NCBI GenBank assembly: GCA_036396275.1
Contig: DASWLD010000099.1
Location: forward strand, 1-24,000
Source: Burkholderiales bacterium
GTDB lineage: Bacteria > Pseudomonadota > Gammaproteobacteria > Acidiferrobacterales > Sulfurifustaceae
DNA: 24,000 bases
Direction: 5' to 3'
The translations under genes and the position numbers were made by a program. Of this stretch, positions 3,027 through 22,832 are shown piece after piece (the first letter of the stretch is position 1; every line of letters starts with the position of its first letter). The notes beneath the pieces are model-generated. The model saw only the letters and a list, made by a program, of their open reading frames with translations. It made no database searches and was not told where the DNA came from.

Positions 3027-3056
3027 TTGGATGTTCTGCCACAGAACCCGGTACCG

Positions 3057-7123: not shown

Positions 7124-7561
7124 ATGAGCGCATACCGCATCGGCCAGGTGACCGCCGCACTCGGATTGAGCGCGGACACGCTACGCTACTACGAGAAAAT
7201 CGGCCTGTTGCCGCGAGTGTCCCGCGCCGGCTCCGGCGTGCGCGTTTACGATGACAACGACCTGTCGCGGTTGCGTTTCATTCAGCGCGCGCAAAAGATG
7301 GATTTCTCGCTCACGGAAATCGGAATGCTGTTGCAAATGCGCGTCGCGCCGCAACGCGCACGGCAAAACGTGCGCGCCCTGGCGGCAAGGAAACTCGCCG
7401 AAATTGAAAGCCGCCTCAAGGATCTGACGCAACTGCGCCGCGAACTCAAGCTGCTGATCGATCTGTGTGCCGGGCTCAAGGGTGGATGCCCCATTATTCG
7501 ACGGATAAACGGCTCGCAATCCCATGGAACAAACGCGGGTCGCGCGCGGGCGGCAAGATAA
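7124..7561 (+). CDS. MerR-family regulator, CueR-like (monovalent-metal type)
   Basis: 145 aa. HTH YRIGQVTAALGLSADTLRYYEKIGLL, a dimerisation helix, and the metal loop DLCAGLKGGCPII (C-x6-C). No Cys at the position of MerR/ZntR Cys79. Confidence 0.9.
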   Translation: MSAYRIGQVTAALGLSADTLRYYEKIGLLPRVSRAGSGVRVYDDNDLSRLRFIQRAQKMDFSLTEIGMLLQMRVAPQRARQNVRALAARKLAEIESRLKDLTQLRRELKLLIDLCAGLKGGCPIIRRINGSQSHGTNAGRARAAR

Positions 7562-8080: not shown

Positions 8081-8791
8081 GTGGTTGTCGCATTTCCTTA
8101 CATGCGTCGCGCGCCCATTGAGGTAGCGCGGTCGCGGTTGCTCCTCGTCGTCGGCCTTGCGCTGGCAGTGTCGGCGCCGCCGCTCGCGGCACATTCGCTG
8201 AAGGACGTGGAGTCCGATCTACATCGCGACGAGCACTACGCGCAGTTCGTCGACATGCCGGCACCGGAATTTCGCCTGATCGATCTCGCCGGCAAGCCGG
8301 CCAGCCTCGGCGATCTCAGGGGGAAAGTCGTCGTGCTGAATTTCATCTACGCGCGCTGCACCGACGTCTGTCCGCTGCACATGAACCTAATTGCCCGCTT
8401 GCAGTCCATGGTTAACGCCGCTCACATGAGCGAACAAGTGCGATTCATCACGATCGCGACCGATACCGAAGACGCGAAAGCCACACGCAAGATCATGGCC
8501 ACCTATGCCAAGACCTACCGTCTCGATACGCGCAACTGGCGGTTCCTGTATCGTGCCGATGCCGCGCGGGCGGACACGACGCAGCGCGTGGCTGAAACCT
8601 ACGGGCTTAAGTTCACCGTCGCCGGCGCCGGTGTGCAGATGCACGGGGTGGTCACCCACGTCATCGACCAGACCGGGCAACTGCGGGCGCGTTTTCACGG
8701 ATTGAAGTTCGAGCCGGTGCACTTGGTGACGTACGTCAGCGCGCTGGTCAAGGACGATCACGGCATGGACTCGGCGAGGCGTGGATCATGA
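8081..8791 (+). CDS. SCO1/SenC-family copper chaperone / thiol-disulfide oxidoreductase
   Basis: GTG 8081 with GGAGG 6 nt upstream. Signal/anchor sequence, CTDVCP (CxxxC) and a downstream His (VVTHVIDQTG). Confidence 0.9.
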   Translation: MVVAFPYMRRAPIEVARSRLLLVVGLALAVSAPPLAAHSLKDVESDLHRDEHYAQFVDMPAPEFRLIDLAGKPASLGDLRGKVVVLNFIYARCTDVCPLHMNLIARLQSMVNAAHMSEQVRFITIATDTEDAKATRKIMATYAKTYRLDTRNWRFLYRADAARADTTQRVAETYGLKFTVAGAGVQMHGVVTHVIDQTGQLRARFHGLKFEPVHLVTYVSALVKDDHGMDSARRGS

Positions 8792-9645
8792 CCGCCGCGT
8801 CGCGATATAAAGTCAGTACTTTCTGGATCGTTATTGCCGCCGCGAGCCTGCTGGCAAATGTCGCGGCGCGCGCGGCGGAACCGATCGTCGCGCTCGCTTC
8901 CGGCGGCGACGTTGACACCGTTTTTATCGCGCGGGCGAATGCACTTTATCGCGGCGATGACGCCGGCCGACGGTGGACGCGCGTCGCGCTGCCCGCCGAG
9001 ATTCGAGACGGCGCTATCGCCACGCTCGCGGCGCCGGCCAAGCGCCAGGGCGTGCTGTATCTGGCCGGTCCCGGGTTCGGCGTGTGGCACAGCGCCGATG
9101 GCGGCCGGAGCTGGGTGGCGCGCAACAACGGGCTGCCGAGCCTCGACGTCGCCGCACTCGCCGCGCATGCGGATCAACCCGATACGCTCTATACCTATGT
9201 CCCGGGCAAGGGCGTCTTCCGCAGCGAAGACGCGGGCGCGCGCTGGAAGTGGATCGACAACGGACCGCGCGGTCCCATCGGACAGTTCATCCATTCGAAC
9301 ATGCCGGGGAGCATGCAGACCGGCTGGCTGTTTGCCGCAACGCCGAAAGGCGTCAGTCGCTCGATGGATTGTTTTTGTCTCTGGCAGGACGCGGGCGGGC
9401 TGGTCGCGGCGGTGACCACTGTCGCCTACGATCCGCGCGAGCCGAAGCATGTCTATGCGGCGACGGCCAAGGGACTGTTGCTCAGCACCGATGGCGGAGA
9501 GGAGTGGACGCTGCTGAGCGCACCCGCTTCTCGCATTACCGCGCTGGCGGTATCGCCGACCGGCACGGTGTTCCTCGGCACCGCCGACGGCGGGTTGTAT
9601 CGCAGTAACGACCAAGCGAAATCCTGGGAGCGGGTCGATGCGTAG
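8788..9645 (+). CDS. BNR/Asp-box repeat beta-propeller protein, secreted
   Basis: ATGA overlap with SCO1. Signal peptide. Asp-boxes SADGGRSW, SEDAGARW, STDGGEEW, SNDQAKSW and GDDAGRRW. Contains an MDCFCLW motif. Confidence 0.85.
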   Translation: MTAASRYKVSTFWIVIAAASLLANVAARAAEPIVALASGGDVDTVFIARANALYRGDDAGRRWTRVALPAEIRDGAIATLAAPAKRQGVLYLAGPGFGVWHSADGGRSWVARNNGLPSLDVAALAAHADQPDTLYTYVPGKGVFRSEDAGARWKWIDNGPRGPIGQFIHSNMPGSMQTGWLFAATPKGVSRSMDCFCLWQDAGGLVAAVTTVAYDPREPKHVYAATAKGLLLSTDGGEEWTLLSAPASRITALAVSPTGTVFLGTADGGLYRSNDQAKSWERVDA

Positions 9646-10096
9646 TCTTGTATCAGTAGCCTGCATCGTACTGGCGGCCGGCGTGGCACCGGCGCATGCC
9701 GGTAACGATACGCCGGTTGCGCCAAACTCCGAGCAGGCCGCATCCGGGCGCGCCATCTATCAAACGTATTGCGCGTCCTGCCACGGCGCGAACGGCGAAG
9801 GGGCGCCCGCGTGGCGCGAGCGCGACGCGCGCGGCGAACTTCCACCGCCGCCGCACGATGCGCAAGGGCACGCCTGGCGGCATTCGGACGCAATGCTCTC
9901 TCGCATGATCCTGCATGGCTGGCGCGACCCGTTCAACAAGACCGAGCGCGTGACCATGCCGGCCTTTACCGGAACGATCGCGCCGCAAGAAGTTCGCTTT
10001 GTTATCGCCTATCTCAAGACGCTGTGGACGCCCGAACAGCGGCAGTTCCAACGGGAAGAGAGTCAACGGCAATCGTTCGCACCCGCGGCGCATTAG
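9638..10096 (+). CDS. Periplasmic c-type cytochrome (monohaem)
   Basis: 8-nt overlap with the previous gene. Signal peptide, CASCH haem motif, distal TMPAF. Confidence 0.88.
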   Translation: MRSLVSVACIVLAAGVAPAHAGNDTPVAPNSEQAASGRAIYQTYCASCHGANGEGAPAWRERDARGELPPPPHDAQGHAWRHSDAMLSRMILHGWRDPFNKTERVTMPAFTGTIAPQEVRFVIAYLKTLWTPEQRQFQREESQRQSFAPAAH

Positions 10097-10129
10097 CAGA
10101 AGAGGATTGTCCAACGAGGTACTGACATT

Positions 10130-11095
10130 ATGAAACCGGAAACCCAGAATAAGTTGGCCATCACGGTCGTGGTCGCCGCGGTCGTCGTGGCGGCCGCCGC
10201 GCTCATCATGGTGATGCGCATGTCATATCCACCCGATGAGGCGCGCGTCATGCGGTTGATCGAGCAGCAGCTGGCGAAACAAGACGGCTCGGCGGCCGTG
10301 CCCGCACTCACTGAAGCGCGCGTGGTGCGACTGATCGAGGAGCGCCTGCCGGCGATGGAATCCGCCGGCAAGGGAATAAGCGAAGCCCGGTTGAAGAAAC
10401 TCATCGATGAACGGCTGGCGGGGAAGAGCGCCTTGCCGGACAAGGAATTCGAAGCGCGTGTGGAAAAAGGCATCGTCGCCTTCATCGAGAAGCAGCGGCG
10501 CGCGGAACAGGAGCGGCCGAACCAACTCGCGCGCAACCTACCGCGACCGAACAAAAGCGATCATATTTACGGGAATCCCACCGCCCCGGTGACGCTCATC
10601 GAGTACTCCGACTTCGAGTGCCCGTTCTGCAAGCGCTTTCACGACAGCGTCAAGCAAGTCGTCGACGCGTCCAAGGGCCAAGTGAAGTGGGTGTATCGCC
10701 ACTTCCCGATCGAGCAGCTTCATCCGGTCAAGGCGCGCAAGGAAGCGGTCGCCGCCGAATGCGCCGGCGAGCTCGGCGGCCACGATGCCTTCTGGAAGTT
10801 CGCCGATCGGTTTTTCGAGTTGACGCCGTCGAACAATCGCACCGACGTCGACACCGTGCTGCCGCAGATCGCCCGAGAAATTGGGCTTGACGAGAAGCAG
10901 TTCGCCTCGTGCGTCGCCAGCGGCAGGCACGACCAGCGCATCGACAAGGACATCCGCGACGCCCAAACTTCCGGCGCGAACGGCACGCCGTGGAGCGTGA
11001 TCGTGTCGAAGGGCGGCAAAACCTACGTGCTCTCGGGCGCGCAGCCGCAGGCGGCGATCAAGCAGCTCACCGAATTGGCGCTACAGGAGAAGTAG
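10130..11095 (+). CDS. DsbA-family thiol:disulfide oxidoreductase, membrane-anchored, with repeat-containing linker
   Basis: 321 aa. N-terminal TM, then EARVMRLIEQQL / EARVVRLIEERL / EARLKKLIDERL / FEARVEKGIVAFIEKQ repeats, then a thioredoxin-fold domain with the active site FECPFCKRF. Confidence 0.9.
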   Translation: MKPETQNKLAITVVVAAVVVAAAALIMVMRMSYPPDEARVMRLIEQQLAKQDGSAAVPALTEARVVRLIEERLPAMESAGKGISEARLKKLIDERLAGKSALPDKEFEARVEKGIVAFIEKQRRAEQERPNQLARNLPRPNKSDHIYGNPTAPVTLIEYSDFECPFCKRFHDSVKQVVDASKGQVKWVYRHFPIEQLHPVKARKEAVAAECAGELGGHDAFWKFADRFFELTPSNNRTDVDTVLPQIAREIGLDEKQFASCVASGRHDQRIDKDIRDAQTSGANGTPWSVIVSKGGKTYVLSGAQPQAAIKQLTELALQEK

Positions 11096-11098
11096 ATC

Positions 11099-11755
11099 GT
11101 GCGCAGCTACGTCAGCGACCTGTACACCGCATTCGCCCGGGTGTTTACCCGCGCCGGGTACATCGTACTGGCGAGCGCGCTGGCGCTGGCGGCGTTTTTG
11201 TTCGCGGTGTGGTTTCCGAACTTCGCTCTGATAGGCGAGGTGTTCGGCACGCCGGACGTGGCGCTCATTGCCAAACTCCGATTCGCTCTGAGCCTACTCG
11301 GCGGCATTGCCACCAATTTTGATCTGCTGTCGGCGGGATACACCGTCGCGATCGCCGTGCTCTTCGGTATCAACACGGCCATGATCGCGTACTTGCTCAC
11401 GCAAAAACGTGTTGTCGCCGCCGGGCAGAACCTTGTCATCGGCTCGGGCGGTATGGCAACCGGCGCACTCGGTATCGGCTGCGCCGCCTGTGGCTCGCTC
11501 GTTTTCACCACGGTGCTGTCCTCGTTCGGCGCCGCGAGTGCCGTCGCTCTGCTGCCGTGGCAAGGCGAGGAGTTCGGAATTCTCGGTGCCGCGCTGCTTC
11601 TGGTATCGGTGTCGCTGATGAGCCGCAAGATCGCCGCGCCGGGCAGTTGTGAAACGCCGGCACGCGGCGTGGGGCGCACCCGCGATCGCATTGCAACACC
11701 AGTAAACGTAAAACGACTCACATTCACTCAACTCGATGAGGTAACGAAACGATGA
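11099..11755 (+). CDS. Polytopic membrane protein with intramembrane GCAAC motif (MerC-like signature)
   Basis: GTG 11099, 3 nt after the DsbA stop, with AGGAGA upstream. Several TM helices. GALGIGCAACGSLVFTTVLSSFGAASAV resembles MerC GCAACFPALASFGAA. Confidence 0.7.
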   Translation: MRSYVSDLYTAFARVFTRAGYIVLASALALAAFLFAVWFPNFALIGEVFGTPDVALIAKLRFALSLLGGIATNFDLLSAGYTVAIAVLFGINTAMIAYLLTQKRVVAAGQNLVIGSGGMATGALGIGCAACGSLVFTTVLSSFGAASAVALLPWQGEEFGILGAALLLVSVSLMSRKIAAPGSCETPARGVGRTRDRIATPVNVKRLTFTQLDEVTKR

Positions 11756-12186
11756 ACCGGCTGAGAACAACCATCCTGATTTTCGCGCTGGGCCTGTCGC
11801 TGCCCGCGTTCGCCGGCGGCATTCCGGCAAAGCTCTACAAGAATCCGAGCTGCGGCTGCTGCGGGGAGTACACGAAATATTTGGAGTCGCACGGATACCA
11901 AGTCGAGGTCATTCCCACGCGCGACATGACCGCGATCAAGAAGACAAACAAAGTGCCGCAGCCGCTCGAAGCCTGTCACACAACGTTGATCAGCGGGTAT
12001 GTGTTCGAGGGCCACGTTCCGGTGGAGACCATCAACCGCGTGCTTAAGGAGCACCCGATCATTCGTGGCGTGTCGGTGCCGGGCATGCCGGCCGGATCGC
12101 CGGGAATGACCGGAGTGAAACGGGGTCCGCTGGACGTGTACTACCTCAGCAACTCGCCCGAGCCGAAAGTGTACGAGTCGCGCTGA
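11752..12186 (+). CDS. copG: CopG-family (DUF411) periplasmic copper-binding protein
   Basis: ATGA overlap with the previous gene. Signal peptide, SCGCCGEY (CxCC), ACHTT and GMPAGSPGM, the DUF411/CopG signatures. Confidence 0.9.
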   Translation: MNRLRTTILIFALGLSLPAFAGGIPAKLYKNPSCGCCGEYTKYLESHGYQVEVIPTRDMTAIKKTNKVPQPLEACHTTLISGYVFEGHVPVETINRVLKEHPIIRGVSVPGMPAGSPGMTGVKRGPLDVYYLSNSPEPKVYESR

Positions 12187-12218
12187 CGCATCGGCGTCAC
12201 CATCACGCGGAGGATCAA

Positions 12219-12482
12219 ATGAACGCGGAGACGGAAACGGCTGTAGTACCCGCCGGGCGGCCCTGGATAAACGGACGCCGGCGTGGGTGGTGGCTCGCGG
12301 GCATTGCAATTCTGGCCGGCGTCGCCCTGGGCAGGGAATGGCTGGCGGCGATCGGGGCGTTGCCGATTTTACTTTCGCTCCTGCCGTGCGCGGCGATGTG
12401 CGCGCTCGGCTTGTGCATGAACCACCAGACCGGCGGCGCGTGCGATCAATCGAAGACGGAAACCACGGAGAAGCCGACATGA
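12219..12482 (+). CDS. Small two-TM Cys-rich protein, DUF2933-like
   Basis: GGAGGA RBS 5 nt upstream, 87 aa. GALPILLSLLPCAAMCALGLCMNH aligns with the in-window DUF2933 protein (GALPFILLALCPLLHIFGHGGHG). Confidence 0.55.
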   Translation: MNAETETAVVPAGRPWINGRRRGWWLAGIAILAGVALGREWLAAIGALPILLSLLPCAAMCALGLCMNHQTGGACDQSKTETTEKPT

Positions 12483-13168
12483 TGTGCAACAAACAGATTC
12501 TCACCTTGGTAGTGGCACTGTTTCTGGTGGCGCCCGCGTTCGGCGCGGGCGATGCCGCGCGTGGGGCAAAAGTTTTCGGCACGTGCATCGCCTGTCATTC
12601 GCTGCGAGTCGGCGAACACCTCACCGGACCGAGTCTGGCTGGCATGGTTGGCCGCCGAGCGGGAACGACCGATGGATTTGCCCGCTACTCGGAAGCGTTG
12701 CGCAAAACCGACGTGATCTGGGACGAGAAGTCGCTCGATGCGTGGATCGCCGACCCGCAGAAGTTCATCCCCGGCAACTTGATGACGTTTCGCGGCCTGC
12801 GCGACGCCGGGCAACGCGCGGATCTCATCGCATTCCTCAAGAATCCGAAGCCGGCGGCGGAGTCCGCGGGCGGTGGCATGGGCGCCATGATGGCGTCGCC
12901 GCGGCTGGAGAGCTTGCGCGCCGTCGAACCGCAAGCGCGCGTGACGGCGATTCGCTACTGCAAGGACAGCTACTTTGTCACGCTCGCCACCGGCAAGACG
13001 TTCCCGTTCTGGGAAGTCAATCTGCGCTTCAAAACGAACGGCACGCCCGACGGCCCGCCGGCCGGCAAGCCCGTGATCTTACGCGGCGGCATGCAGGGCG
13101 ACCGCGCCTCGATTGTGTTCGCGAGTCCCGATGAGATCGGGAAGTTCGTCAAAAAGCGCTGCGAATGA
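12479..13168 (+). CDS. Class I c-type cytochrome fused to an uncharacterised C-terminal domain
   Basis: ATG 12479 (ATGA overlap). The track ORF from 12287 is an upstream extension. Signal peptide, CIACH, LMTF, a Met-rich linker GGGMGAMMASP, then a ~90-aa domain with two Cys (RYC...KRCE). Confidence 0.85.
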   Translation: MMCNKQILTLVVALFLVAPAFGAGDAARGAKVFGTCIACHSLRVGEHLTGPSLAGMVGRRAGTTDGFARYSEALRKTDVIWDEKSLDAWIADPQKFIPGNLMTFRGLRDAGQRADLIAFLKNPKPAAESAGGGMGAMMASPRLESLRAVEPQARVTAIRYCKDSYFVTLATGKTFPFWEVNLRFKTNGTPDGPPAGKPVILRGGMQGDRASIVFASPDEIGKFVKKRCE

Positions 13169-13752
13169 ACAAACCGGTGCAACCCTTGGTGCCGGATCAT
13201 TTGCTACCCGCGACACACAGCCGCGCGTGGCGCGGCTACGTCGTCGCACTGGTCGTGTTTGGCGCAATCGGGATTCTCCTTGCCTACGGTCTCGGTCTCG
13301 ATCCGAAGCGCATTCCCTCGCCGCTAATCGGCAGACCGGTGCCAACGTTCGAGTTGCCGCCCGTGCAAGGCCGCACGCTCGGCCTGTCGAGCGAAAACCT
13401 CACGGGCGAGGTGTCATTGGTAAACGTCTTTGCTTCCTGGTGTGCGGCGTGCTTGGACGAGCACCCGTTATTCATGCGTCTCAAGCGCGACAACGTCGTG
13501 CCCATCCATGGGCTCAACTACAAGGACGCGCCCGATGACGCCGCCGCCTGGCTCGCGCGCCACGGCGATCCCTATACCCGCACCGGCGCCGACCGCGACG
13601 GGCGCGTCGGGATCGACTGGGGCGTCTACGGCGTGCCGGAAACCTTCGTCATCGACCGCGACAGCCGCATCGCGTACAAGTTCATCGGGCCGCTCAGCGA
13701 TAAAGACGTAAACGAAACATTGCTCCCGTTGCTGGAGAAGTTGCGCCAATGA
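13165..13752 (+). CDS. dsbE: DsbE/CcmG-type periplasmic thiol:disulfide oxidoreductase
   Basis: ATGA overlap. N-terminal anchor, WCAAC active site, GVYGVPETFVID. Confidence 0.9.
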   Translation: MNKPVQPLVPDHLLPATHSRAWRGYVVALVVFGAIGILLAYGLGLDPKRIPSPLIGRPVPTFELPPVQGRTLGLSSENLTGEVSLVNVFASWCAACLDEHPLFMRLKRDNVVPIHGLNYKDAPDDAAAWLARHGDPYTRTGADRDGRVGIDWGVYGVPETFVIDRDSRIAYKFIGPLSDKDVNETLLPLLEKLRQ

Positions 13753-14363
13753 GTCTTCGAACGGCGACTTTCATCCGCCGCGCTGCCGCTGTCGCGCTCG
13801 GCTTGATCGCGGCGGTCGCGGTGGCGGTGGTCGCGTACCGCTATGCGACCGGGCAATCAGAAGGCGAGGGCGCCGGCGCCGATGCCACGATCAAGGTCGG
13901 TGGCCGGGACTTCATTCGATGGGACACGCCGCGCACGCTGCCGGCCGTCGTCTTTGCCGACGAGAATGGCCGTGAGGTCACGCTCGAGCAATTCCGCGGC
14001 CGCGTGGTGCTGCTAAACGTTTGGGCCACGTGGTGCGTGCCGTGCCGCAAGGAGATGCCGACGCTCGACCGATTGCAGGCGAAGCTCGGCGGTCCGGACT
14101 TCGAGGTCGTCGCGCTCTCGATCGATCAGGACGGAATCGCCGCCGTGCGCAAGTTCTATCAAGAGGTCGGCATCAAGCATCTGCGGATTTACAACGACCC
14201 GACGGCCGATGCGACTGCGCGCCTCAATATTCTCGGCATACCGGCGACGTTGCTCGTCGATCGCGCGGGCCGCGAGGTTGGGCGCGCCTTGGGGCCGGCG
14301 GAGTGGGATGCGCCGGACGTGATCGAACTCATTCGGGCGCATTGGAACCCGCCGTCAAAATGA
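13749..14363 (+). CDS. tlpA: TlpA-family thiol:disulfide oxidoreductase
   Basis: ATGA overlap. TM anchor, VWATWCVPCRKEMP, GIPATLLVD. Confidence 0.9.
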   Translation: MSLRTATFIRRAAAVALGLIAAVAVAVVAYRYATGQSEGEGAGADATIKVGGRDFIRWDTPRTLPAVVFADENGREVTLEQFRGRVVLLNVWATWCVPCRKEMPTLDRLQAKLGGPDFEVVALSIDQDGIAAVRKFYQEVGIKHLRIYNDPTADATARLNILGIPATLLVDRAGREVGRALGPAEWDAPDVIELIRAHWNPPSK

Positions 14364-14418
14364 TATGCGGTGCTCTTTCGCGCTTACGCCTATTCGTGAT
14401 GAGTAAGGAGCTTCAGAC

Positions 14419-15972
14419 ATGTTGACACGCCGAACCGCGTTAAGGGTGCTAACCGCCGGGGTGGGAATCCTTGCGGCACCGTTGCCGCTGCGGCGCGCGT
14501 TTGCCGGGCGTGAACCCGATTTGGTGCTGAGGCTCACCGCCGCGCCCGACGACGTGCAACTCCGGCCGGGACCCAGGACGCGAGTGCTGCGTTTCATGGG
14601 TGAGGTGTTGCGTGGCCGCACCGACGCCGTTAAACCCGCACCGGGTTACCTTGGACCGACGATTGAATTGCGCCGCGGCGAGCGCGTGCGCATTCAGTTC
14701 CGAAATCGCGCCTTCGGTCCGAGCATCGTCCACTGGCACGGCATGATCGTCCCCGACGTCGCCGACGGACATCCGCGTCACGCCGTCGGACCCGGCGGTG
14801 ATTACCTATACGAATTTACGGTGCAAAATCCGGCGGGGACTTATCTTTATCATCCCCATCCGCACGGACTCACCGGCGCGCAAGTGTACTACGGCTTGGC
14901 CGGGCTGCTCATCGTGCGCGACTCGGAGGAAACCGTGGGCGGACTGCCGGCCGGCGAGCGCGAGCTTGCGCTCGTGATCCAGGACCGGCGGGTCGGGCGC
15001 GACAATCAGTTCAGCTTCAAACGCATGATGATGGACGACATGAACGGCGTGCTCGGCGACACGGCGTTGGTCAATGGCAGACCCGACGCCGCCTTCACGG
15101 TGGTGCCGCGCACTTACCGGTTGCGGCTGGCCAATGTCTCGAACGCGCGCATTTACAAGCTCGCCTGGTCGGACGGCCGGCCGATGCGAGTCATTGCCAC
15201 CGATAACGGTCTTTTTTCCTCCGCCGAGGGCATTCAGACCCGGCCGTACGTGGTGGTCGCGCCGTTCCAACGTCTCGAACTGATCGAGGACTTCGGCGCG
15301 CGGCGCTCGAAAACGGAGATTGCGCTGATGAGCCGGGCGTTCTCGTCGCTATCCATGGATACCATGATGGGCGGCATGATGGGTAACGGCGGCGGAGGAA
15401 TGATGGGTGGAGGTGGAATGATGGGCGGCGGCATGATGGGTGGGATGATGCGGGGCATGATGGGCGCGGACCAAGGCGAGGAGCTTGTAGTGGCGCGCTT
15501 TACCGTCGCATCCGGGACGCGCGTTCGCGACGCGGATGTGCGTCTGCCCGATCCCATACCGTTTCCGGAGAAAACCGACGCCGAGTTATATACGGAGCTT
15601 GCGTTTCGCCATATGCGCGGCTTCCTGAACGGTCGCCGCTTCAACATGCTGGCGGTCGCCGACGAGGAGCGGCTGCCTCTTGGCCGCGCCGCCGTGTGGA
15701 CGTTCGCGAACGACGGGCCGGGAATGGCCATGCCGCACCCCATGCACATTCACGGCGTGCGTTTCCGGATTCTCGAGCGCAGCGGCGGCGCGGCGGCGGG
15801 CGATCTGCGCGAGGGCATCGTCGACGCCGGCTACAAGGACATGTTTCTGATCTTCCCCGGCGAGCGTGTGCGCGTCGGCCTCGTGCCGACCGAGCCCGGC
15901 ATGTTCATGTACCACTGTCACAACCTCGAGCACGAGGACGCCGGCATGATGCGCAACGTTGTCGTGAGTTGA
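14419..15972 (+). CDS. Tat-exported three-domain multicopper oxidase with Met/Gly-rich insert
   Basis: AAGGAG RBS. Twin-arginine leader MLTRRTALRVL. Copper motifs HWHG, HPHPHG, HPMHIHG, HCHNLEHEDAGMM. Insert MDTMMGGMMGNGGGGMMGGGGMMGGGMMGGMMRGMMG. Confidence 0.93.
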   Translation: MLTRRTALRVLTAGVGILAAPLPLRRAFAGREPDLVLRLTAAPDDVQLRPGPRTRVLRFMGEVLRGRTDAVKPAPGYLGPTIELRRGERVRIQFRNRAFGPSIVHWHGMIVPDVADGHPRHAVGPGGDYLYEFTVQNPAGTYLYHPHPHGLTGAQVYYGLAGLLIVRDSEETVGGLPAGERELALVIQDRRVGRDNQFSFKRMMMDDMNGVLGDTALVNGRPDAAFTVVPRTYRLRLANVSNARIYKLAWSDGRPMRVIATDNGLFSSAEGIQTRPYVVVAPFQRLELIEDFGARRSKTEIALMSRAFSSLSMDTMMGGMMGNGGGGMMGGGGMMGGGMMGGMMRGMMGADQGEELVVARFTVASGTRVRDADVRLPDPIPFPEKTDAELYTELAFRHMRGFLNGRRFNMLAVADEERLPLGRAAVWTFANDGPGMAMPHPMHIHGVRFRILERSGGAAAGDLREGIVDAGYKDMFLIFPGERVRVGLVPTEPGMFMYHCHNLEHEDAGMMRNVVVS

Positions 15973-16114
15973 TCCCATCGAGATGCATGCAGCCGTTGGC
16001 CTAGCTCTTATCTCAACCAATCGGTGCCATGGGCGCACTGCATGGCAGCCGTTCTTGGCGACGTGTCACCCGACCCGTTATTGTCGTTAACTTGAAACTG
16101 AAAAGGAGCACATC

Positions 16115-16426
16115 ATGAAAGAGTCGACGCTACTCATACAATCCGCGGTCGCAAGCCTGCTCGTTCTAGGAATGACGGCGGGCGCCGGCTCCGCCTTCGC
16201 TGCAAAAGGCGGAATCGATCGTTGCGCCGGGATTGCCAAAGCCGGTAAGAACGATTGCGGGACGGCGACGGCATCGTGCGCCGGCACGTCCAAGGTGGAC
16301 GGCGACAAAAACGCCTGGATTGCCGTACCGAAGGGGACGTGCGAAAAGATCGTCGGCGGCCAATTGGCCGACGCCGGTGCAATCGCGAAGCACATGAAGG
16401 AAATGGAAATGATGAAAAAGAAGTGA
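16115..16426 (+). CDS. DUF2282-type secreted Cys-containing peptide (bufferin BufA1-like precursor) with Met/Lys-rich tail
   Basis: AAGGAG RBS, 103 aa. Sec signal ending AFA. Core [47 protein letters not shown] (Cys37, 48, 55, 76) matches the DUF2282 pattern [10 protein letters not shown]...C.G....D...W..VP.G.C. Tail [13 protein letters not shown]. Confidence 0.8.
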
Positions 16427-16435
16427 TTCAGATGG

Positions 16436-16461
16436 CCGATCCCGGCGCGCGCCGGGATCGG
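16436..16461 (+). terminator. Perfect 26-nt GC-rich palindrome after the DUF2282 gene (partial terminator/RNA stabiliser candidate)
   Basis: CCGATCCCGGCGC|GCGCCGGGATCGG starts 10 nt after the stop. No clear U-tract follows (TCCTTGG), so the terminator call is weak. Confidence 0.4.
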
Positions 16462-16505
16462 TCCTTGGATCGCGCTGGAATCCATCTTCATTTTCGGAGC
16501 GCTTT

Positions 16506-17108
16506 GTGAATCGACATGTTCTTGCGGCAGTAATGGCGAGCCTTCTCGGCGTCCTGCTTCCTGCCTCTGAGTCCGCGGCGCAGGACGTGGCCGCCAAGCG
16601 CGGCTTTCCTTTCGCTAATCACGGCAACGGCTTCGCGCTGTCGCCGAAGGTTTTGCTCGCGGCGGACGGCGTTTCCGACGGCGGCTTGCGTAAGCAATCG
16701 TCCGCGAGCGTCGATGGCGCGGACGAATTATTGCCGCCGGACCGGGCTTTCACCGTTTCCATTTCCGCCAAGGACGCCGACAACTTGGTGGCGGTGTTCA
16801 CTCCCGCGGAAGGTTATTTCCTGTATCGCGACAAGTTCATATTTCGCGTACAACAACCGCCGGGTATCGAGGTCGCGAACGTTGCGATCCCTCGCGGCGA
16901 AATCAAGGACGATCCGATCTTCGGGAAAACCGAGGTCTTCCATCGGCCGGTGCGGGTACGGGTTCAACTGAAGAGAACGAATTCTTCCGCGCGCAGCTTG
17001 ATGCTCTACGTCAGGTACCAGGGATGCAACGAACCGCTGGCGGTTTGTTATATCCCGATCGAAAAAACTTTGCGCATCACGCTACCGCCGGCGGCTCGCG
17101 GCGGCTGA
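16506..17108 (+). CDS. Stand-alone DsbD alpha (N-terminal periplasmic) domain protein
   Basis: GTG start with GGAG 7 nt upstream. Signal peptide. LLPPDRAF...GYFLYRDK...YQGCNEPLAVCYIP parallels E. coli DsbD-alpha (LPVDQAF...GYYLYR...YQGCADAGFCYPP). Confidence 0.85.
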   Translation: MNRHVLAAVMASLLGVLLPASESAAQDVAAKRGFPFANHGNGFALSPKVLLAADGVSDGGLRKQSSASVDGADELLPPDRAFTVSISAKDADNLVAVFTPAEGYFLYRDKFIFRVQQPPGIEVANVAIPRGEIKDDPIFGKTEVFHRPVRVRVQLKRTNSSARSLMLYVRYQGCNEPLAVCYIPIEKTLRITLPPAARGG

Positions 17109-17150
17109 ATCCGAATATGCATTCCTACGGATGCCAGAGTGACCTAAACA

Positions 17151-17891
17151 ATGTCTGAAATCGCGAACATCGGGTTGTTGACCGCCTTCCTGGCCGGTCT
17201 AATCTCCTTCGTCTCGCCGTGCGTGCTGCCGCTGGTGCCGGGTTATATTTCCTTTATCGCCGGGCGTTCGCTCGATGAGCTGGACGCGCCGACGCATTTC
17301 ACGCGGCTCACCCTGTTCGGGCAAGCGGCATTGTTCGTGCTCGGGTTCTCGACCGTGTTCATCGCGCTCGGCGCGAGCGCCACGGCGCTCGGGCGGCTGC
17401 TGCTCACGTACAAACAGGAAGCGAATCTCATCGGCGGGATAATCGTCGTGGTGTTCGGACTATTCATGACCGGGTTGATCAACCCGCGCTGGCTGCATCT
17501 CGATCTGCGTTTTGTACATCGGATCGAATTGCGCGGCGGGCCGGTGGCGGCGTATGTACTCGGGCTCGCGTTCGCGTTCGGCTGGACGCCATGCATCGGC
17601 CCGATTCTCGGCGCCATTCTCACCGTCAGCGCCTCGACCGCCTCGATCCAAGGCGGCATCGTCTTGCTGTCGGTTTACTCGCTCGGTTTAGGCGTACCCT
17701 TCGTGTTGACCGCGGTGTTTCTCGAACGCTTCCTGGTTCATCAGCCGCGCCTGCGACGTTGGAGTCGACCGCTGCACCTTGCCACCGGCATCATACTTAT
17801 CTTCGCAGGCATCGCGATCGCCACCGGTCAGCTCACGAAACTCTCTTATTGGCTTCTCGAGTTATTCCCGGCGCTGGGCCGTATCGGTTGA
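17151..17891 (+). CDS. ccdA: CcdA / DsbD-beta transmembrane electron transporter
   Basis: 246 aa. Canonical SPCVLPLVPGY (TM1) and WTPCIGPILG (TM4). Confidence 0.92.
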   Translation: MSEIANIGLLTAFLAGLISFVSPCVLPLVPGYISFIAGRSLDELDAPTHFTRLTLFGQAALFVLGFSTVFIALGASATALGRLLLTYKQEANLIGGIIVVVFGLFMTGLINPRWLHLDLRFVHRIELRGGPVAAYVLGLAFAFGWTPCIGPILGAILTVSASTASIQGGIVLLSVYSLGLGVPFVLTAVFLERFLVHQPRLRRWSRPLHLATGIILIFAGIAIATGQLTKLSYWLLELFPALGRIG

Positions 17892-18026
17892 CGTTCCCCG
17901 ACACATTTGTCGGTCTCGGCTGGCGTTAATGCCGCTCCATGAACTGTGGCGCTGCGTTGGAACCCGAGCCTTTTGCGTATTGATCTACATCAACACATAG
18001 CGGCGCGCGTCGGGTATTGTTCACAT

Positions 18027-18428
18027 ATGACCTTAAGTGTGAACCGGATGCAAGACAACAGATTCGCACGAGCGCTGGCGTTCGTCGCTGTTGCGGCGTT
18101 CGTTCTTCTTCTGGGTCCTTACTGCGACATCGTGAGTTCCGCGCGAGCCGAGGCGCCAAGCAACGCAAGCCATCACGCGACCGACGCGCAGGACCACGGA
18201 AAATCCTCGCCGGCCGATCTATGTCCGTCGCTCGATCACACGCCGGCTGTTCCGCCCGATGCCGTTTCTTCGCCGCTGGTTAACGCGACACCGGCGTTTC
18301 CGCCGGTGGGTGCACCTGGCCTCGTCGTGCGCATCCCGAACAGCCGAGGACGAATTACACCGCGAGCGACGCCACCGCCAGGTCAACGCGTGCCGCTCTA
18401 TCTGCGCTACGCCCATCTTCTGACCTAG
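18027..18428 (+). CDS. Small secreted/anchored His-rich hypothetical protein (start uncertain)
   Basis: ATG 18027 or 18048 within ORF 17946..18428. Signal-like ALAFVAVAAFVLLLG, SHHATDAQDHG, CPSLDH, Pro-rich. C-terminus PRATPPPGQRVPLYLRYAHLLT resembles the C-terminus of ORF 7592. Confidence 0.4.
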   Translation: MTLSVNRMQDNRFARALAFVAVAAFVLLLGPYCDIVSSARAEAPSNASHHATDAQDHGKSSPADLCPSLDHTPAVPPDAVSSPLVNATPAFPPVGAPGLVVRIPNSRGRITPRATPPPGQRVPLYLRYAHLLT

Positions 18429-18674
18429 CCCTCCGCCGTCGACGGCGCACGTCGGCGCGCGGGTTCGGCTACGGCAGCAGTAACCGCGAATAAGTCGACC
18501 CGGCAACCGACGTGCCATTCAACGCTCGGAGCTTTCTTGGAGAGTACTATGTTAACAGTTACCGAATTCTCTCGACGCCACGGCAACCTTGAATGCTTGA
18601 CTTACGTGTAGCGCACGCGCGTACAAGGTCCTTCCGGGCGGTCATGCATTACTCCCCACGTTGAGAACCGAAAA

Positions 18675-20252: not shown

Positions 20253-22832
20253 ATGGAAAAGAAAGTGGCGGCCACCGATCCCGTCTGCGGGATGTCCGTG
20301 GATCCAATGAAAGCGGCCGGACAAGCGGAGCACGAGGGCGTTCGTTACTACTTCTGCTCGACACACTGTCAGCACAAGTTTTCGGAGGCACCGGACAGGT
20401 TCATTTCGAAGGTCCCGGGGAAGACCGTAAAGGATCCGGTTTGCGGAATGACAGTGCAGCCGGCGGCCGCGGCGGCGCGAGCCGAGCACGGCGGCGCGAC
20501 GTATTACTTTTGTTCGGACCACTGCCAACACAAGTTCACCGCGAATCCGGATCGATACCTCGGCGCGTCCGCAAAGGCGCCGGACGTTTCTGCAAAGAGG
20601 GAAGGCGCCACTTACACCTGCCCGATGCATCCGGAAGTGCGCGAGCCAAAACCAGGCGCTTGCCCGGATTGCGGCATGGCGCTCGAACCGGCGGAAGTGT
20701 CGATGCCGGCGACGAAAGTCGAGTACACCTGCCCGATGCATCCGGAGATCGTGCGCGATGCGCCCGGCAGTTGTCCGATCTGCGGCATGGCGCTCGAACC
20801 GCGCACCGTGGCCGTCGCGGAAGAGGAGAACCCGGAGCTGGTCGACATGACGCGCCGCTTTTGGGTGTCGACCGCGCTCGCGATCCCGGTGTTTCTGAGC
20901 GCGATGCTCGCGGAGTTCGCACCCGATTTCATGAACGCCTTGGTTTCGCACGGTACGCGCCAATGGATCGAGTTGGTGGTCGCCACACCGGTGGTGCTTT
21001 GGGGCGGCTGGCCGTTCTTCGTACGCGGCTGGCGTTCGGTGGTGACGTGGAATCTCAACATGTTCACGTTGATCGGGCTCGGCGTCGCGGTCGCGTGGGG
21101 TTACAGCATTGTCGCGACGTTGGCGCCGGGAATTTTCCCGGATTCGGTCAAAATGCCCGGCGGCCATGTACCCGTGTACTTCGAAGCAGCCGCGGTAATT
21201 ACGGCGCTGGTGCTGCTCGGTCAGGTATTGGAGCTGCGCGCGCGTTCGCGCACCAGCGCCGCAATCAAGATGCTGCTCGGACTCGCGCCGAATACGGCGC
21301 GCATCGTGCGCGCCGACGGGCGCGAGGAAGACATACCGCTCGATCAGGTCAAACCCGGCGATACGTTGCGCGTGCGCCCGGGCGAGAAAGTGCCGGTCGA
21401 TGGGAAAGTCACCGACGGCACGAGCGCCGTGGATGAGTCCATGGTCACCGGAGAGTCGATTCCGGCAACGAAGCAAGCGGGCGACAAGCTCATTGGCGCT
21501 ACCGTCAACGGAACGGGAAGTCTACTGATGCGCGCCGAGCGCGTCGGCACCGATACGCTGCTCGCGCAAATCGTTCGCATGGTCTCGGAAGCGCAGCGCT
21601 CGCGCGCGCCCATTCAGAAGCTGGTCGATATCGTCGCCGGCTATTTCGTGCCGGCGGTCGTAATCGTCGCCGTCATCACGCTGATCGTCTGGGGCTTCTG
21701 GGGTCCCGAGCCGCGTCTGGCGCATGCCGTTATCAACGCGGTGGCGGTGCTCATTATCGCGTGCCCGTGCGCGCTGGGGCTGGCGACGCCGATGTCGATC
21801 ATGGTCGGCACCGGGCGTGGTGCGACCATGGGTGTGCTTATCAAGAATGCCGAAGCGCTCGAAGTGTTGGTCAAGGTAAATACACTTGTCGTCGACAAGA
21901 CCGGAACGCTCACCGAAGGCAAGCCGAAACTCGTGAGCGTCGAAGCCGCACCCGGCTTCGACGAAGCGACGGTACTGCGCCTGGCGGCAAGTCTCGAACG
22001 TGCGAGCGAACATCCGCTGGCGGCGGCGATCGTGCGCGGCGCCGAAGCGCGTGAACTGCGCCTGACATCGCCGACCGAGTTCGATTCGCAAACCGGCCGT
22101 GGCGTTGTCGGTCGAATCGAAAACCGCCGACTGGCGCTGGGCAATCGCAAATTGCTCGACGAGCAAGGCATCGATGCGATGGCGCTGCACACGCGCGCCG
22201 ACGTGTTGCGCGGCGAAGGCCAAACCGTGATGTACCTCGCCGTGGATGGAAAACCCGCAGGTCTGGTGGGCGTTGCCGATCCTATCAAAGAGACGACACG
22301 CGAAGCGCTCGACGTGTTGCACCGCGAAGGCGTGCAAGTCGTTATGCTGACCGGCGACAACGCTACGACCGCGCAAGCGGTGGCGAAGAAGCTCGGTATC
22401 GATCGCGTCCAAGCGGATGTACTTCCGGAGAAGAAGGCGGAGATCGTGAAGCAGCTGCAAGCCGAAGGCCGTATCGTCGCGATGGCGGGCGACGGCATCA
22501 ACGACGCGCCGGCGCTGGCGCAAGCCCAGGTGGGCATTGCGATGGGCACCGGTACCGATGTCGCCATGGAGAGCGCCGGCGTCACGCTAATCAAGGGCGA
22601 TCTGCGCGGCATCGCCCGCGCGCGGCGCCTGTCGCACGCCACCATGCGCAACATCCGCCAGAACTTGTTCTTCGCGTTTATCTACAACACGCTCGGCGTG
22701 CCGATCGCCGCCGGGTTGCTATATCCATTTTTCGGACTGCTGCTTTCGCCGATGATCGCCGCCGCGGCGATGAGCTTCAGCTCGGTATCGGTGGTAACCA
22801 ATGCGCTGCGGCTGCGGCGCGTGCGCCTGTAA
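20253..22832 (+). CDS. copA: Cu(I)-translocating P1B-1 ATPase CopA with 2x YHS/TRASH and 2x CPMHPE-type N-terminal modules
   Basis: 859 aa. N-terminal DPVCGM...YYFCS..C.HKF twice and YTCPMHPE...CP.CGMALEP twice. Core motifs [33 protein letters not shown] (TM5), MSFSSVSV (TM6). Confidence 0.95.

Follow-up and report, generated by a model that had tools for sequence, protein, structure and literature searches.

We analysed a 24,000-nucleotide stretch of DNA from a Burkholderiales bacterium (GenBank assembly GCA_036396275.1, contig DASWLD010000099.1, positions 1 to 24,000), hereafter the window, and describe a bufA1-like gene at 16115..16426 on its forward strand. Proteins of the DUF2282/BufA1 family are the precursors of bufferins, which chelate copper and belong to the RiPPs, peptides that the ribosome makes and that are then altered post-translationally. 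The bufferin system is defined by a bufABC(D) cluster, in which the second and third precursor cysteines (CysII and CysIII) are converted to 5-thiooxazoles, with a mass change of -4.03 Da each. In the window, the precursor gene stands without these maturation genes, between a multicopper oxidase (MCO) and the two halves of a split DsbD. We find this neighbourhood conserved in five diverged lineages and the gene itself under strong purifying selection.

A BufA1-family gene in a multicopper oxidase/DsbD operon

An ATG start codon, preceded at a distance of 6 nt by the Shine-Dalgarno sequence AAGGAG (16103..16108, + strand, read from the sequence), opens a reading frame of 103 aa, a length within the 80-120 aa of the family. 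Its product comprises a signal peptide (aa 1-29, nt 16115-16201) with a predicted cleavage site between AFA and AK, a four-Cys core (aa 30-82, nt 16202-16360; C37, C48, C55 and C76) and a C-terminal His/Met/Lys tail (aa 83-103, nt 16361-16423). By inspection, the signal is of the Sec type, with an MKES n-region, a hydrophobic stretch at residues 6-25 and AFA followed by A as the cleavage motif. AlphaFold2 places a helix at residues 5-25, matching this region, in a model whose mean predicted local distance difference test score of 62.6 is too low for a fold search. A first-pass annotation of the window had proposed this reading frame, its Sec signal and the four cysteine positions, and all three hold, the cysteine positions exactly. 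It had also assigned the protein to DUF2282, and the reading frame passes the profile search for this family, scoring 83.1 bits where the gathering threshold is 22.4 (E 1.4e-23) over positions 2-53 of the 53 in the Pfam profile, although the correct accession is PF10048 and not PF09913, as given there. In an alignment of 40 sequences, the four cysteines occupy invariant columns, in register as CysI-CysIV, and all 18 invariant columns of the family are kept (18/18). By contrast, the NCBIfam model for BufA2 (NF050166, Buf_6/12Cys) yields just 21.6 bits against a curated cut-off of 60, the window protein having four cysteines, not six; a sequence search of the PDB with the window protein returned no relative. 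All defining features of the DUF2282/BufA1 family that can be tested are present, and the protein is a member of this family.

An identical protein, annotated as 'DUF2282 domain-containing protein', has been deposited for a Burkholderiales metagenome-assembled genome (P0001). Its gene lies on a 59.8-kb ENA contig, of which the window covers approximately positions 1917-25916. Two further, independent assemblies (L002, ERZ27256989; L180, JGI 3300030606) carry the identical gene with unchanged surroundings, and the locus is therefore not an assembly artefact.

The flanking genes, all on the + strand, are likewise those named in the first-pass annotation. Upstream, at 14419..15972, lies the MCO (Pfam Cu-oxidase_3 and Cu-oxidase_2), with a twin-arginine (Tat) signal (MLTRRTALRV...) and a long Met/Gly-rich insert of the MGGM type; it is CueO/CopA-like but remains under the equivalog cut-offs (239 bits versus 525 for NCBIfam CueO). 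Downstream, a stand-alone periplasmic DsbD-alpha (16506..17108, starting at GTG 16506 or ATG 16533; Pfam DsbD_N, 93 bits; NCBIfam DsbD residues 22-139) carries the motif YQGCNEPLAVCY, with its redox Cys pair in the form YQGC-x6-CY. It is followed by DsbD-beta, a CcdA-like membrane electron conduit (17151..17891; Pfam DsbD_TM, 68 bits; NCBIfam DsbD residues 171-388). Alpha and beta are thus separate genes and the gamma thioredoxin domain is absent, but the pair has what marks a DsbD/ScsB-type transporter, namely an alpha domain with its Cys pair and a beta membrane domain.

The claim that no maturation gene is nearby also stands, and over a greater distance: there is no gene or remnant of an MNIO (DUF692, PF05114), DUF2063 (PF09836) or DoxX protein in the 16 kb upstream and the 17.6 kb downstream of bufA. 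Every substantial open reading frame in the window was scanned with Pfam, and none matched DUF692/MbnB_TglH_ChrH, DUF2063/HvfC_N or DoxX; hidden Markov models (HMMs) built locally from canonical loci found none of the three families among its six-frame reading frames. A tblastn search with 90 MNIO, DUF2063 and DoxX proteins produced only artefactual matches, on bufA itself. The continuation of the contig up to 17.6 kb past bufA (L179) is equally free of the three families, and the transcription unit of bufA thus acquires no bufBC pair in the stretch directly beyond the window. Nor is there, at the window locus, a gene for an extracytoplasmic function (ECF) sigma factor or a DUF3379 protein, as in control of the SigF-NrsF or ECF-DUF3379 type. 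The locus is outside the gene-cluster definition of the bufferin system, and because its MNIO, DUF2063 and ECF features were looked for and not found, we speak of a BufA1-family protein and not of a bufferin.

The arrangement is not a one-off, a possibility that the first-pass annotation had allowed for. A BufA1 with a homologous tail lies upstream of a stand-alone DsbD_N in an MCO operon in five diverged lineages: the window, L187 (BufA1 92% identical to that of the window), L185 (88%), L003 (87%) and L008 (57%). The window MCO is 83% identical to its orthologues in L003 and L185, and 41% to that in L008. Two backbone orders occur, MCO-BufA-alpha-beta and MCO-beta-BufA-x-alpha. L187 shows the order of the window (MCO - BufA1 - DsbD_N - DsbD_TM). 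L185/L186, which was found together with L187 by a reciprocal search with the DsbD_N protein and context look-ups, shares the upstream row of the window (DsbA-like, a 215-aa protein, DUF411, cytochrome c, two redoxins, an intact Tat-MCO) and continues with DsbD_TM - BufA1 - a 77-aa Met/Gly-rich membrane protein - DsbD_N. The locus of P0003 (L003-L007) reads MCO - x - BufA1 - 79-aa ORF - DsbD_N, and that of P0006 (L008) MCO - Rieske - BufA1 - DsbD_N - ICMT. The outgroups nearest to the window DsbD_N (52-58% identity) have the operon without BufA1, in the orders MCO - DsbD_TM - DsbD_N (L092-L096) or ...MCO - DsbD_N - DUF3105 - P-II - DsbD_TM (L188). BufA1 is therefore an accessory gene that joined a copper operon in which MCO and split DsbD were already present, and that was kept there; the idea that MCO and DsbD are dedicated to BufA1 was rejected on the same grounds.

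Substitution rates point in the same direction as synteny. According to the Nei-Gojobori method, with the window compared to L003, L185 and L187, the ratio of nonsynonymous to synonymous substitutions (dN/dS) is 0.11-0.12 for the whole bufA1 gene, 0.09 for its core and, on few sites, 0.09 for its tail; the corresponding values are 0.13-0.14 for the MCO, 0.18-0.23 for DsbD_N and 0.23-0.36 for the redoxins. The dN of bufA1 (0.04-0.06) is the lowest in the operon, and its dS (0.38-0.51) is somewhat under the 0.6-1.6 of its neighbours yet comparable in magnitude, a result that fits co-divergence. Given this ratio and the lowest dN of the operon, bufA1 is a real, selected and functional gene.

It could be objected that the gene is a neutral passenger, or the decaying relic of a former buf operon, without any function. 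The surrounding metal island is indeed a mosaic, with an IS110 element and a truncated mer module, and there is decay around bufA in relatives. In L003, the MCO (125-1588) has lost the hydrophobic part (h-region) of its Tat signal in a 30-aa deletion relative to the window and L185, and DsbD_TM and MCO fragments (2072-2239 and 3832-3990) lie on either side of bufA; in L008, DsbD_N (4520-4957) stops ahead of the redox Cys pair, while bufA persists. We nevertheless regard a functionless relic as very improbable in view of a dN/dS of 0.11 at a dS of 0.4-0.5 with the lowest dN of the operon, of a reading frame, ribosome-binding site and four cysteines that are intact in five lineages, and of the absence of flanking MNIO, DUF2063 or DoxX remnants. 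Its family membership, its functional status and its place in a conserved operon we take as next to certain. In our reading, BufA1 has become fixed, in one Burkholderiales-type lineage of copper-resistance islands, as an accessory to a large operon for copper and thiol-redox functions in the periplasm.

Tail, hairpin and genomic surroundings

The tail is homologous among the five orphans and follows the pattern GG[QR]LA[DSN]......K.ME.M..KK. Its segment HMKEMEMM spaces His and Met at i and i+3/4 on a helix that AlphaFold2 predicts with low confidence, and this conserved His/Met/Lys helix may, as a speculation, add a low-affinity capture site for Cu(I). The first-pass annotation was right about the presence of a Met/Lys tail, but such a tail is not specific to orphans. 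Tails of this kind also occur on canonical, MNIO-linked relatives, such as P0005 (...MKDSKAEMKK) and the very Met-rich P0012, and across the family the C-terminal tails are variable, charged and sporadically Met-rich. Accordingly, we rejected the tail as a mark of precursors without an MNIO; it either predates the loss of MNIO linkage or is independent of it.

A perfect, G+C-rich hairpin with a 13-bp stem (GGCCGAUCCCGGC-GCGC-GCCGGGAUCGGUC, 16434..16463, + strand) begins 8 nt past the bufA stop codon. The predicted RNA fold reaches -43.3 kcal/mol over 87 nt (z = -3.7), with none of 200 shuffled sequences as stable; it has no U-tract and was not called by a terminator scan. Behind bufA, this stem sequence recurs in L187, in L185 (with one mismatch) and in L003, while L008 has two other strong hairpins. 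Stem-loops that stabilize or attenuate the transcript are often seen 3' of RiPP precursor genes. We read the hairpin of the window as such an element, which would probably raise the abundance of the bufA transcript relative to the downstream genes.

Upstream of the MCO, a row of tightly packed genes (8081..14363, + strand; Pfam and NCBIfam matches), whose start and stop codons overlap or almost abut, encodes in this order an SCO1/SenC-like protein, a BNR protein, a cytochrome c, a DsbA/DsbG-like protein, a 218-aa membrane protein, DUF411 (CopG-like), a small open reading frame, a second cytochrome c, and DsbE-like and TlpA-like redoxins. This row recurs in L185 and L188. Its head is formed by a MerR-family (CueR-type) regulator (7124..7561, + strand; Pfam MerR_1 and MerR-DNA-bind), a candidate metal sensor for the operon. 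The 218-aa protein (11099-11755, + strand), directly after the DsbA/DsbG-like gene, is a multi-pass membrane protein with an intramembrane GIGCAACGS motif; it matches no Pfam or NCBIfam model and has a counterpart of 215 aa at the same position in L185. It possibly represents an undescribed family of redox partners similar to DsbB/VKOR.

The window lacks another small protein, of 77-79 aa, which in L185 (6765-6998) and L003 (2885-3124) is encoded between bufA and DsbD_N. A Met/Gly-rich loop (GMGLTMGGMMTGMGMGSMMGG) separates its two predicted transmembrane helices; it matches no Pfam family and has the look of a small Cu(I)-binding membrane protein.

Downstream of DsbD_TM, the window contains a CMD/AhpD-like gene and then a P1B-type ATPase with YHS and HMBD metal-binding domains (20253..22832, + strand; Pfam). 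Together with an HMA-type ATPase at 3027-5534 (Pfam), the second P1B ATPase of the window, it characterizes the region as a copper/heavy-metal island. The 784-bp gap between DsbD_TM and the CMD gene (17892-18674) is without a called gene in the source contig. Its sole open reading frame (17946-18428, 160 aa) has no family match, and in the matching gap of the sister contig L180 a gene of 133 aa has been called. At the left end of the island, a MerT/MerR remnant and an IS110-family transposase lie at 369-2743, while a second Thioredoxin_3-MerC-MerR module (L179:18667-20099) follows approximately 12 kb past the right end of the window. LTXXQ/Metal_resist, DsbA, SHOCT, LolA-like and MacB-type ABC genes are also found on the contig. 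An Rfam scan of the window and a megablast search of 14400-18500 against plasmids gave no match, and a tblastn search of plasmids with the window BufA1 returned only canonical or unrelated contexts. Among the plasmid loci, a Legionella DUF692-DUF2063-DUF2282 cluster followed by Trx-CcdA-CMD was set aside as a different module, its CcdA being only 26% identical to the window DsbD_TM. On a Rhodanobacter denitrificans plasmid (L173, NZ_CP088981.1, 5148-7040), DUF2282-DUF692-DUF2063 lies between merR and merTPCA-D-E of a mer operon, where the bufferin cluster has apparently been recruited to mercury resistance.

Possible maturation of the orphan precursor

The 80 closest loci, one genome per GTDB species, were classed with the local HMMs. 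BufA1 lies directly beside an MNIO in 51/80 and in the same locus, 0.6-3.9 kb away from it, in a further 15/80, so that 66/80 have an MNIO. Ten of the 80 have none within 3-10 kb on either side, eight of these with an adjacent DoxX, and four contigs are too short for classing. An MCO or DsbD_N next to BufA1 occurs in 0/80. The expectation that DUF2282 genes normally sit beside their maturation genes is therefore borne out, as far as the MNIO is concerned, for 51/80 loci, while orphan status as such is not new. In addition to our ten unlinked loci, Buf1 precursors unlinked to an MNIO have been described as a 'sizeable proportion' of the family, either in single-gene units or with non-conserved flanking genes (PMC12452194, Fig. 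3d and Co-occurrence section). For these stand-alone precursors, the same survey leaves open both that they are 'modified by an MNIO at another locus, or not modified'. The survey reports no conserved partners of such precursors, in contrast to the conserved flanks, MCO and DsbD-alpha, of the orphan BufA1 described here.

Some MNIO-less loci among these relatives, and one BufA1 paralogue, deserve mention in their own right. In Reyranella and relatives (L028, L037, L058, L063, L067), BufA1 and DoxX are followed by a much longer DoxX-containing reading frame, with no MNIO in the locus, and an 889-aa fusion of DoxX and NDH2 (pyridine nucleotide-disulfide oxidoreductase) lies near an orphan BufA1 at L049:5872-8541. 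Undibacterium arcticum (L009/L010/L012:7275-9062) has a second BufA1 of 96 aa, located 2.7 kb upstream of its canonical bufABCD and followed by a 469-aa protein with a guanylate/adenylate cyclase domain.

Several observations make maturation of the window BufA1 in trans plausible. Outside the orphan subclade, its closest relatives are canonical: P0005 (71% identity by BLAST) belongs to a bufABC-ECF-DUF3379 locus, P0007 (~67%) lies between two MNIO-DUF2063 pairs in a bufABC(D)-ECF operon, and P0012 of Undibacterium arcticum is part of bufABCD-ECF-DUF3379. An MNIO is present in 66/80 loci. Among 4072 complete genomes with DUF2282, only 21 lack any MNIO gene and 4051 have one (PMC12452194), and BufBC recognizes the core peptide and not the signal peptide (PMC11626156). 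Without BufB or BufC, the BufA1 of Caulobacter fails to protect against copper, while DoxX is dispensable, and the binding of metals, including copper, needs the thiooxazole heterocycles (PMC11626156). Finally, the orphans keep every family-invariant column, which also argues for modification in trans.

We thus favour, with middling confidence, a functional, periplasmic, copper-buffering BufA1 within the MCO/DsbD-alpha-beta operon, which is brought into its thiooxazole form by a BufBC of the host and kept reduced by the DsbD relay. Judged from its sequence, the precursor would leave the cytoplasm through Sec, with cleavage behind AFA29. In Caulobacter Buf1, CysI and CysIV are linked by a disulfide and CysII and CysIII become thiooxazoles (PMC11626156). 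By homology, CysI and CysIV would form a structural disulfide here as well, whereas CysII and CysIII would constitute the copper site, most probably after conversion to 5-thiooxazoles in the cytoplasm by BufB (MNIO) and BufC (DUF2063) encoded elsewhere. In the periplasm, BufA1 would then buffer Cu(I)/Cu(II) and the MCO would remove Cu(I), while the adjacent DsbD-alpha/beta relay would keep the metal-binding sulfurs of BufA1 and the other thiol proteins of the operon reduced under copper-catalysed oxidation. A need for such a reductant is plausible because DsbD/ScsB-type transporters are established components of copper tolerance (PMC10907172, PMC3322552). We infer the modification state, the copper binding and the link to DsbD.

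A number of points weigh against this reading. Neither MNIO nor DUF2063 is found on 33.8 kb of the contig (positions 1917-35670 of 59.8 kb) or beside the five orthologues, and the enzyme acting in trans is an assumption. The motif GTAAGGTTT-N14-CGGTCT, which lies upstream of canonical betaproteobacterial bufA genes (L009:9917-9950, L011:1320-1352 and 3289-3320, L013:5514-5546, L015:2158-2190), in L011 additionally upstream of the ECF sigma gene and, in related variants, in L174, L177 and L181, is presumably the promoter for the operon's own ECF sigma/DUF3379 pair. It is not found upstream of the orphan bufA genes, and nothing there thus points to joint regulation with a buf operon of the host. 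The upstream regions of the orphans are not conserved among each other and an alignment shows no common element; a tentative 'GTCAC...CGTT' resemblance between the window and L008 was dropped, and a scan for sigma-70 promoters and terminators gave no more sites than shuffled sequence. Moreover, the island looks mobile (IS110 transposase, mer remnants), which would make reliance on a host enzyme precarious, and yet bufA is strongly conserved. Lastly, the redox link between BufA1 and DsbD may be positional only, because the MCO and DsbD-alpha/beta operon exists without BufA1.

These points suggest an alternative that we consider possible but clearly less probable, namely that BufA1 acts as an unmodified metalloprotein, independent of any MNIO, in which the C48-x6-C55 dithiol forms a Cu(I) site kept reduced by DsbD-alpha. 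CysI and CysIV would again form a structural disulfide, DsbA would otherwise oxidize CysII and CysIII, and the His/Met tail might aid in capturing Cu(I) or handing it over to the oxidase; we advance these details with the same reserve. The missing MNIO at all five orthologues and the lost ECF promoter fit such a protein, as does strong purifying selection within a mobile island, which argues for self-sufficiency. In five lineages, BufA1 stays directly upstream of DsbD_N, in L185 and L003 with the small membrane protein gene in between, while the position of DsbD_TM varies, and this lasting adjacency fits the need of the dithiol for a reductant in an oxidizing periplasm. Within the subclade, the tails are homologous and under selection, a second BufA1 operon without an MNIO has a thioredoxin-like partner (see below), and the published survey leaves 'not modified' open (PMC12452194). 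On the other hand, in the sole system tested, BufA1 without BufB and BufC does not protect, and binding requires thiooxazoles (PMC11626156). The core shows no relaxation at family-invariant positions relative to MNIO-linked relatives, similar Met/Lys tails occur in canonical loci, the DsbD-alpha of L008 is truncated before its Cys pair although bufA is kept, and outgroup operons have DsbD-alpha/beta without BufA1.

The second MNIO-less operon (L177:8001-12890, L178, L181:3961-8668, L182-L184) comes from many samples. It encodes an 84-aa BufA1 (63-65% identity, ending in GGKVVTK), followed by a Thioredoxin_7/DsbH-like protein, Gluconate_2-dh3 (a Tat small subunit), a GMC flavoprotein oxidoreductase and DoxX, and then by an ECF sigma factor with its DUF3379 anti-sigma factor. 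Upstream lies TGTCAGGA-N15-CGGTCT, a promoter of the ECF type, and P0083 is indexed in 143 contig blocks. In what is otherwise a canonical operon, other genes thus seem to have taken the place of the MNIO-DUF2063 pair, from which it follows that BufA1 proteins can associate with other redox enzymes. The texts of the two bufferin studies (PMC12452194, PMC11626156) do not mention this operon type, nor DsbD, thioredoxin, MCO or GMC proteins.

Such a replacement, recurring in L177, L178 and L181-L184, and the wealth of uncharacterized periplasmic redox proteins in the window operon raise the possibility that the central cysteines are modified after export by an oxidoreductase other than an MNIO, encoded in the operon or elsewhere in the host (such as the MCO, a cytochrome c or another periplasmic redox enzyme), with a chemistry other than thiooxazole formation. 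We consider this improbable: the window and the GMC-type operon have no enzyme in common, the MCO/DsbD operon occurs without BufA1, so that none of its enzymes is dedicated to it, and we know of no chemistry for such a route.

Maturation by a host BufBC therefore remains our preferred reading, and the locus, conserved, strongly selected and with defined partners (MCO, DsbD-alpha/beta), offers a concrete test case for the question of orphan precursors. If BufA1 is matured in trans, mobile copper islands recruit the RiPP machinery of their host. If it is not, a RiPP precursor fold is re-used as a plain thiol metalloprotein that is serviced by the envelope disulfide-reduction pathway. We raise, tentatively, the idea that this branch of the bufferin family has left the RiPP pathway and acts as an unmodified dithiol/His-Met Cu(I) buffer with DsbD-alpha as dedicated reductant, in concert with the adjacent MCO. 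Should this be true, then, in conjunction with the GMC/thioredoxin operon, the DUF2282 fold would serve generally as a metal-thiol module of the periplasm, with MNIO as just one of several redox partners that can replace each other. Either outcome links metallophore buffering with thiol repair of the Scs/DsbD type, copper defences that research has hitherto treated apart.

Relation to known systems

Periplasmic Cu(I) motifs rich in Met and His are known from the Met-rich loops of CopA/PcoA, from CusF and from PcoE/SilE. The tail of the window BufA1 resembles them in its His/Met spacing, and the neighbouring MCO has an insert of the MGGM type, but the tail motif comprises only ~12 residues and is of a type that is found on MNIO-linked BufA1 as well.

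A precedent for maturation in trans is provided by the prochlorosins, whose ProcA precursors are encoded remote from their enzyme and are processed by a single, substrate-tolerant ProcM. The window precursor differs from these in having a conserved, non-biosynthetic neighbourhood.

The closest characterized relatives are BufA1 of Caulobacter vibrioides and GigP of the Cupriavidus/Legionella gig system (PMC11626156, PMC5413113). They share with the window protein the Pfam family, the Sec signal, the register of the cysteines and a length of 80-120 aa, as well as a context of copper-stress genes, and members from betaproteobacterial bufABCD clusters have cores that are 57-71% identical to that of the window BufA1. 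Unlike these, the window gene lacks adjacent BufB, BufC and BufD, an ECF sigma/anti-sigma pair and the promoter motif, and is set between an MCO and a split DsbD instead. With the stand-alone Buf1 genes of the published survey (PMC12452194), it shares the missing genetic link to an MNIO; it differs from them in flanks that are conserved in five lineages, with the MCO upstream and DsbD-alpha downstream, and in a subclade-specific tail.

Finally, the operon recalls the Scs/ScsB-DsbD systems (PMC10907172, PMC3322552), which are likewise linked to copper, combine alpha and beta domains without gamma, and have DsbA/DsbG-like and TlpA/DsbE-like partners. In the window, by contrast, alpha and beta are split, no NCBIfam Scs model is matched, and the unit includes an MCO and BufA1.

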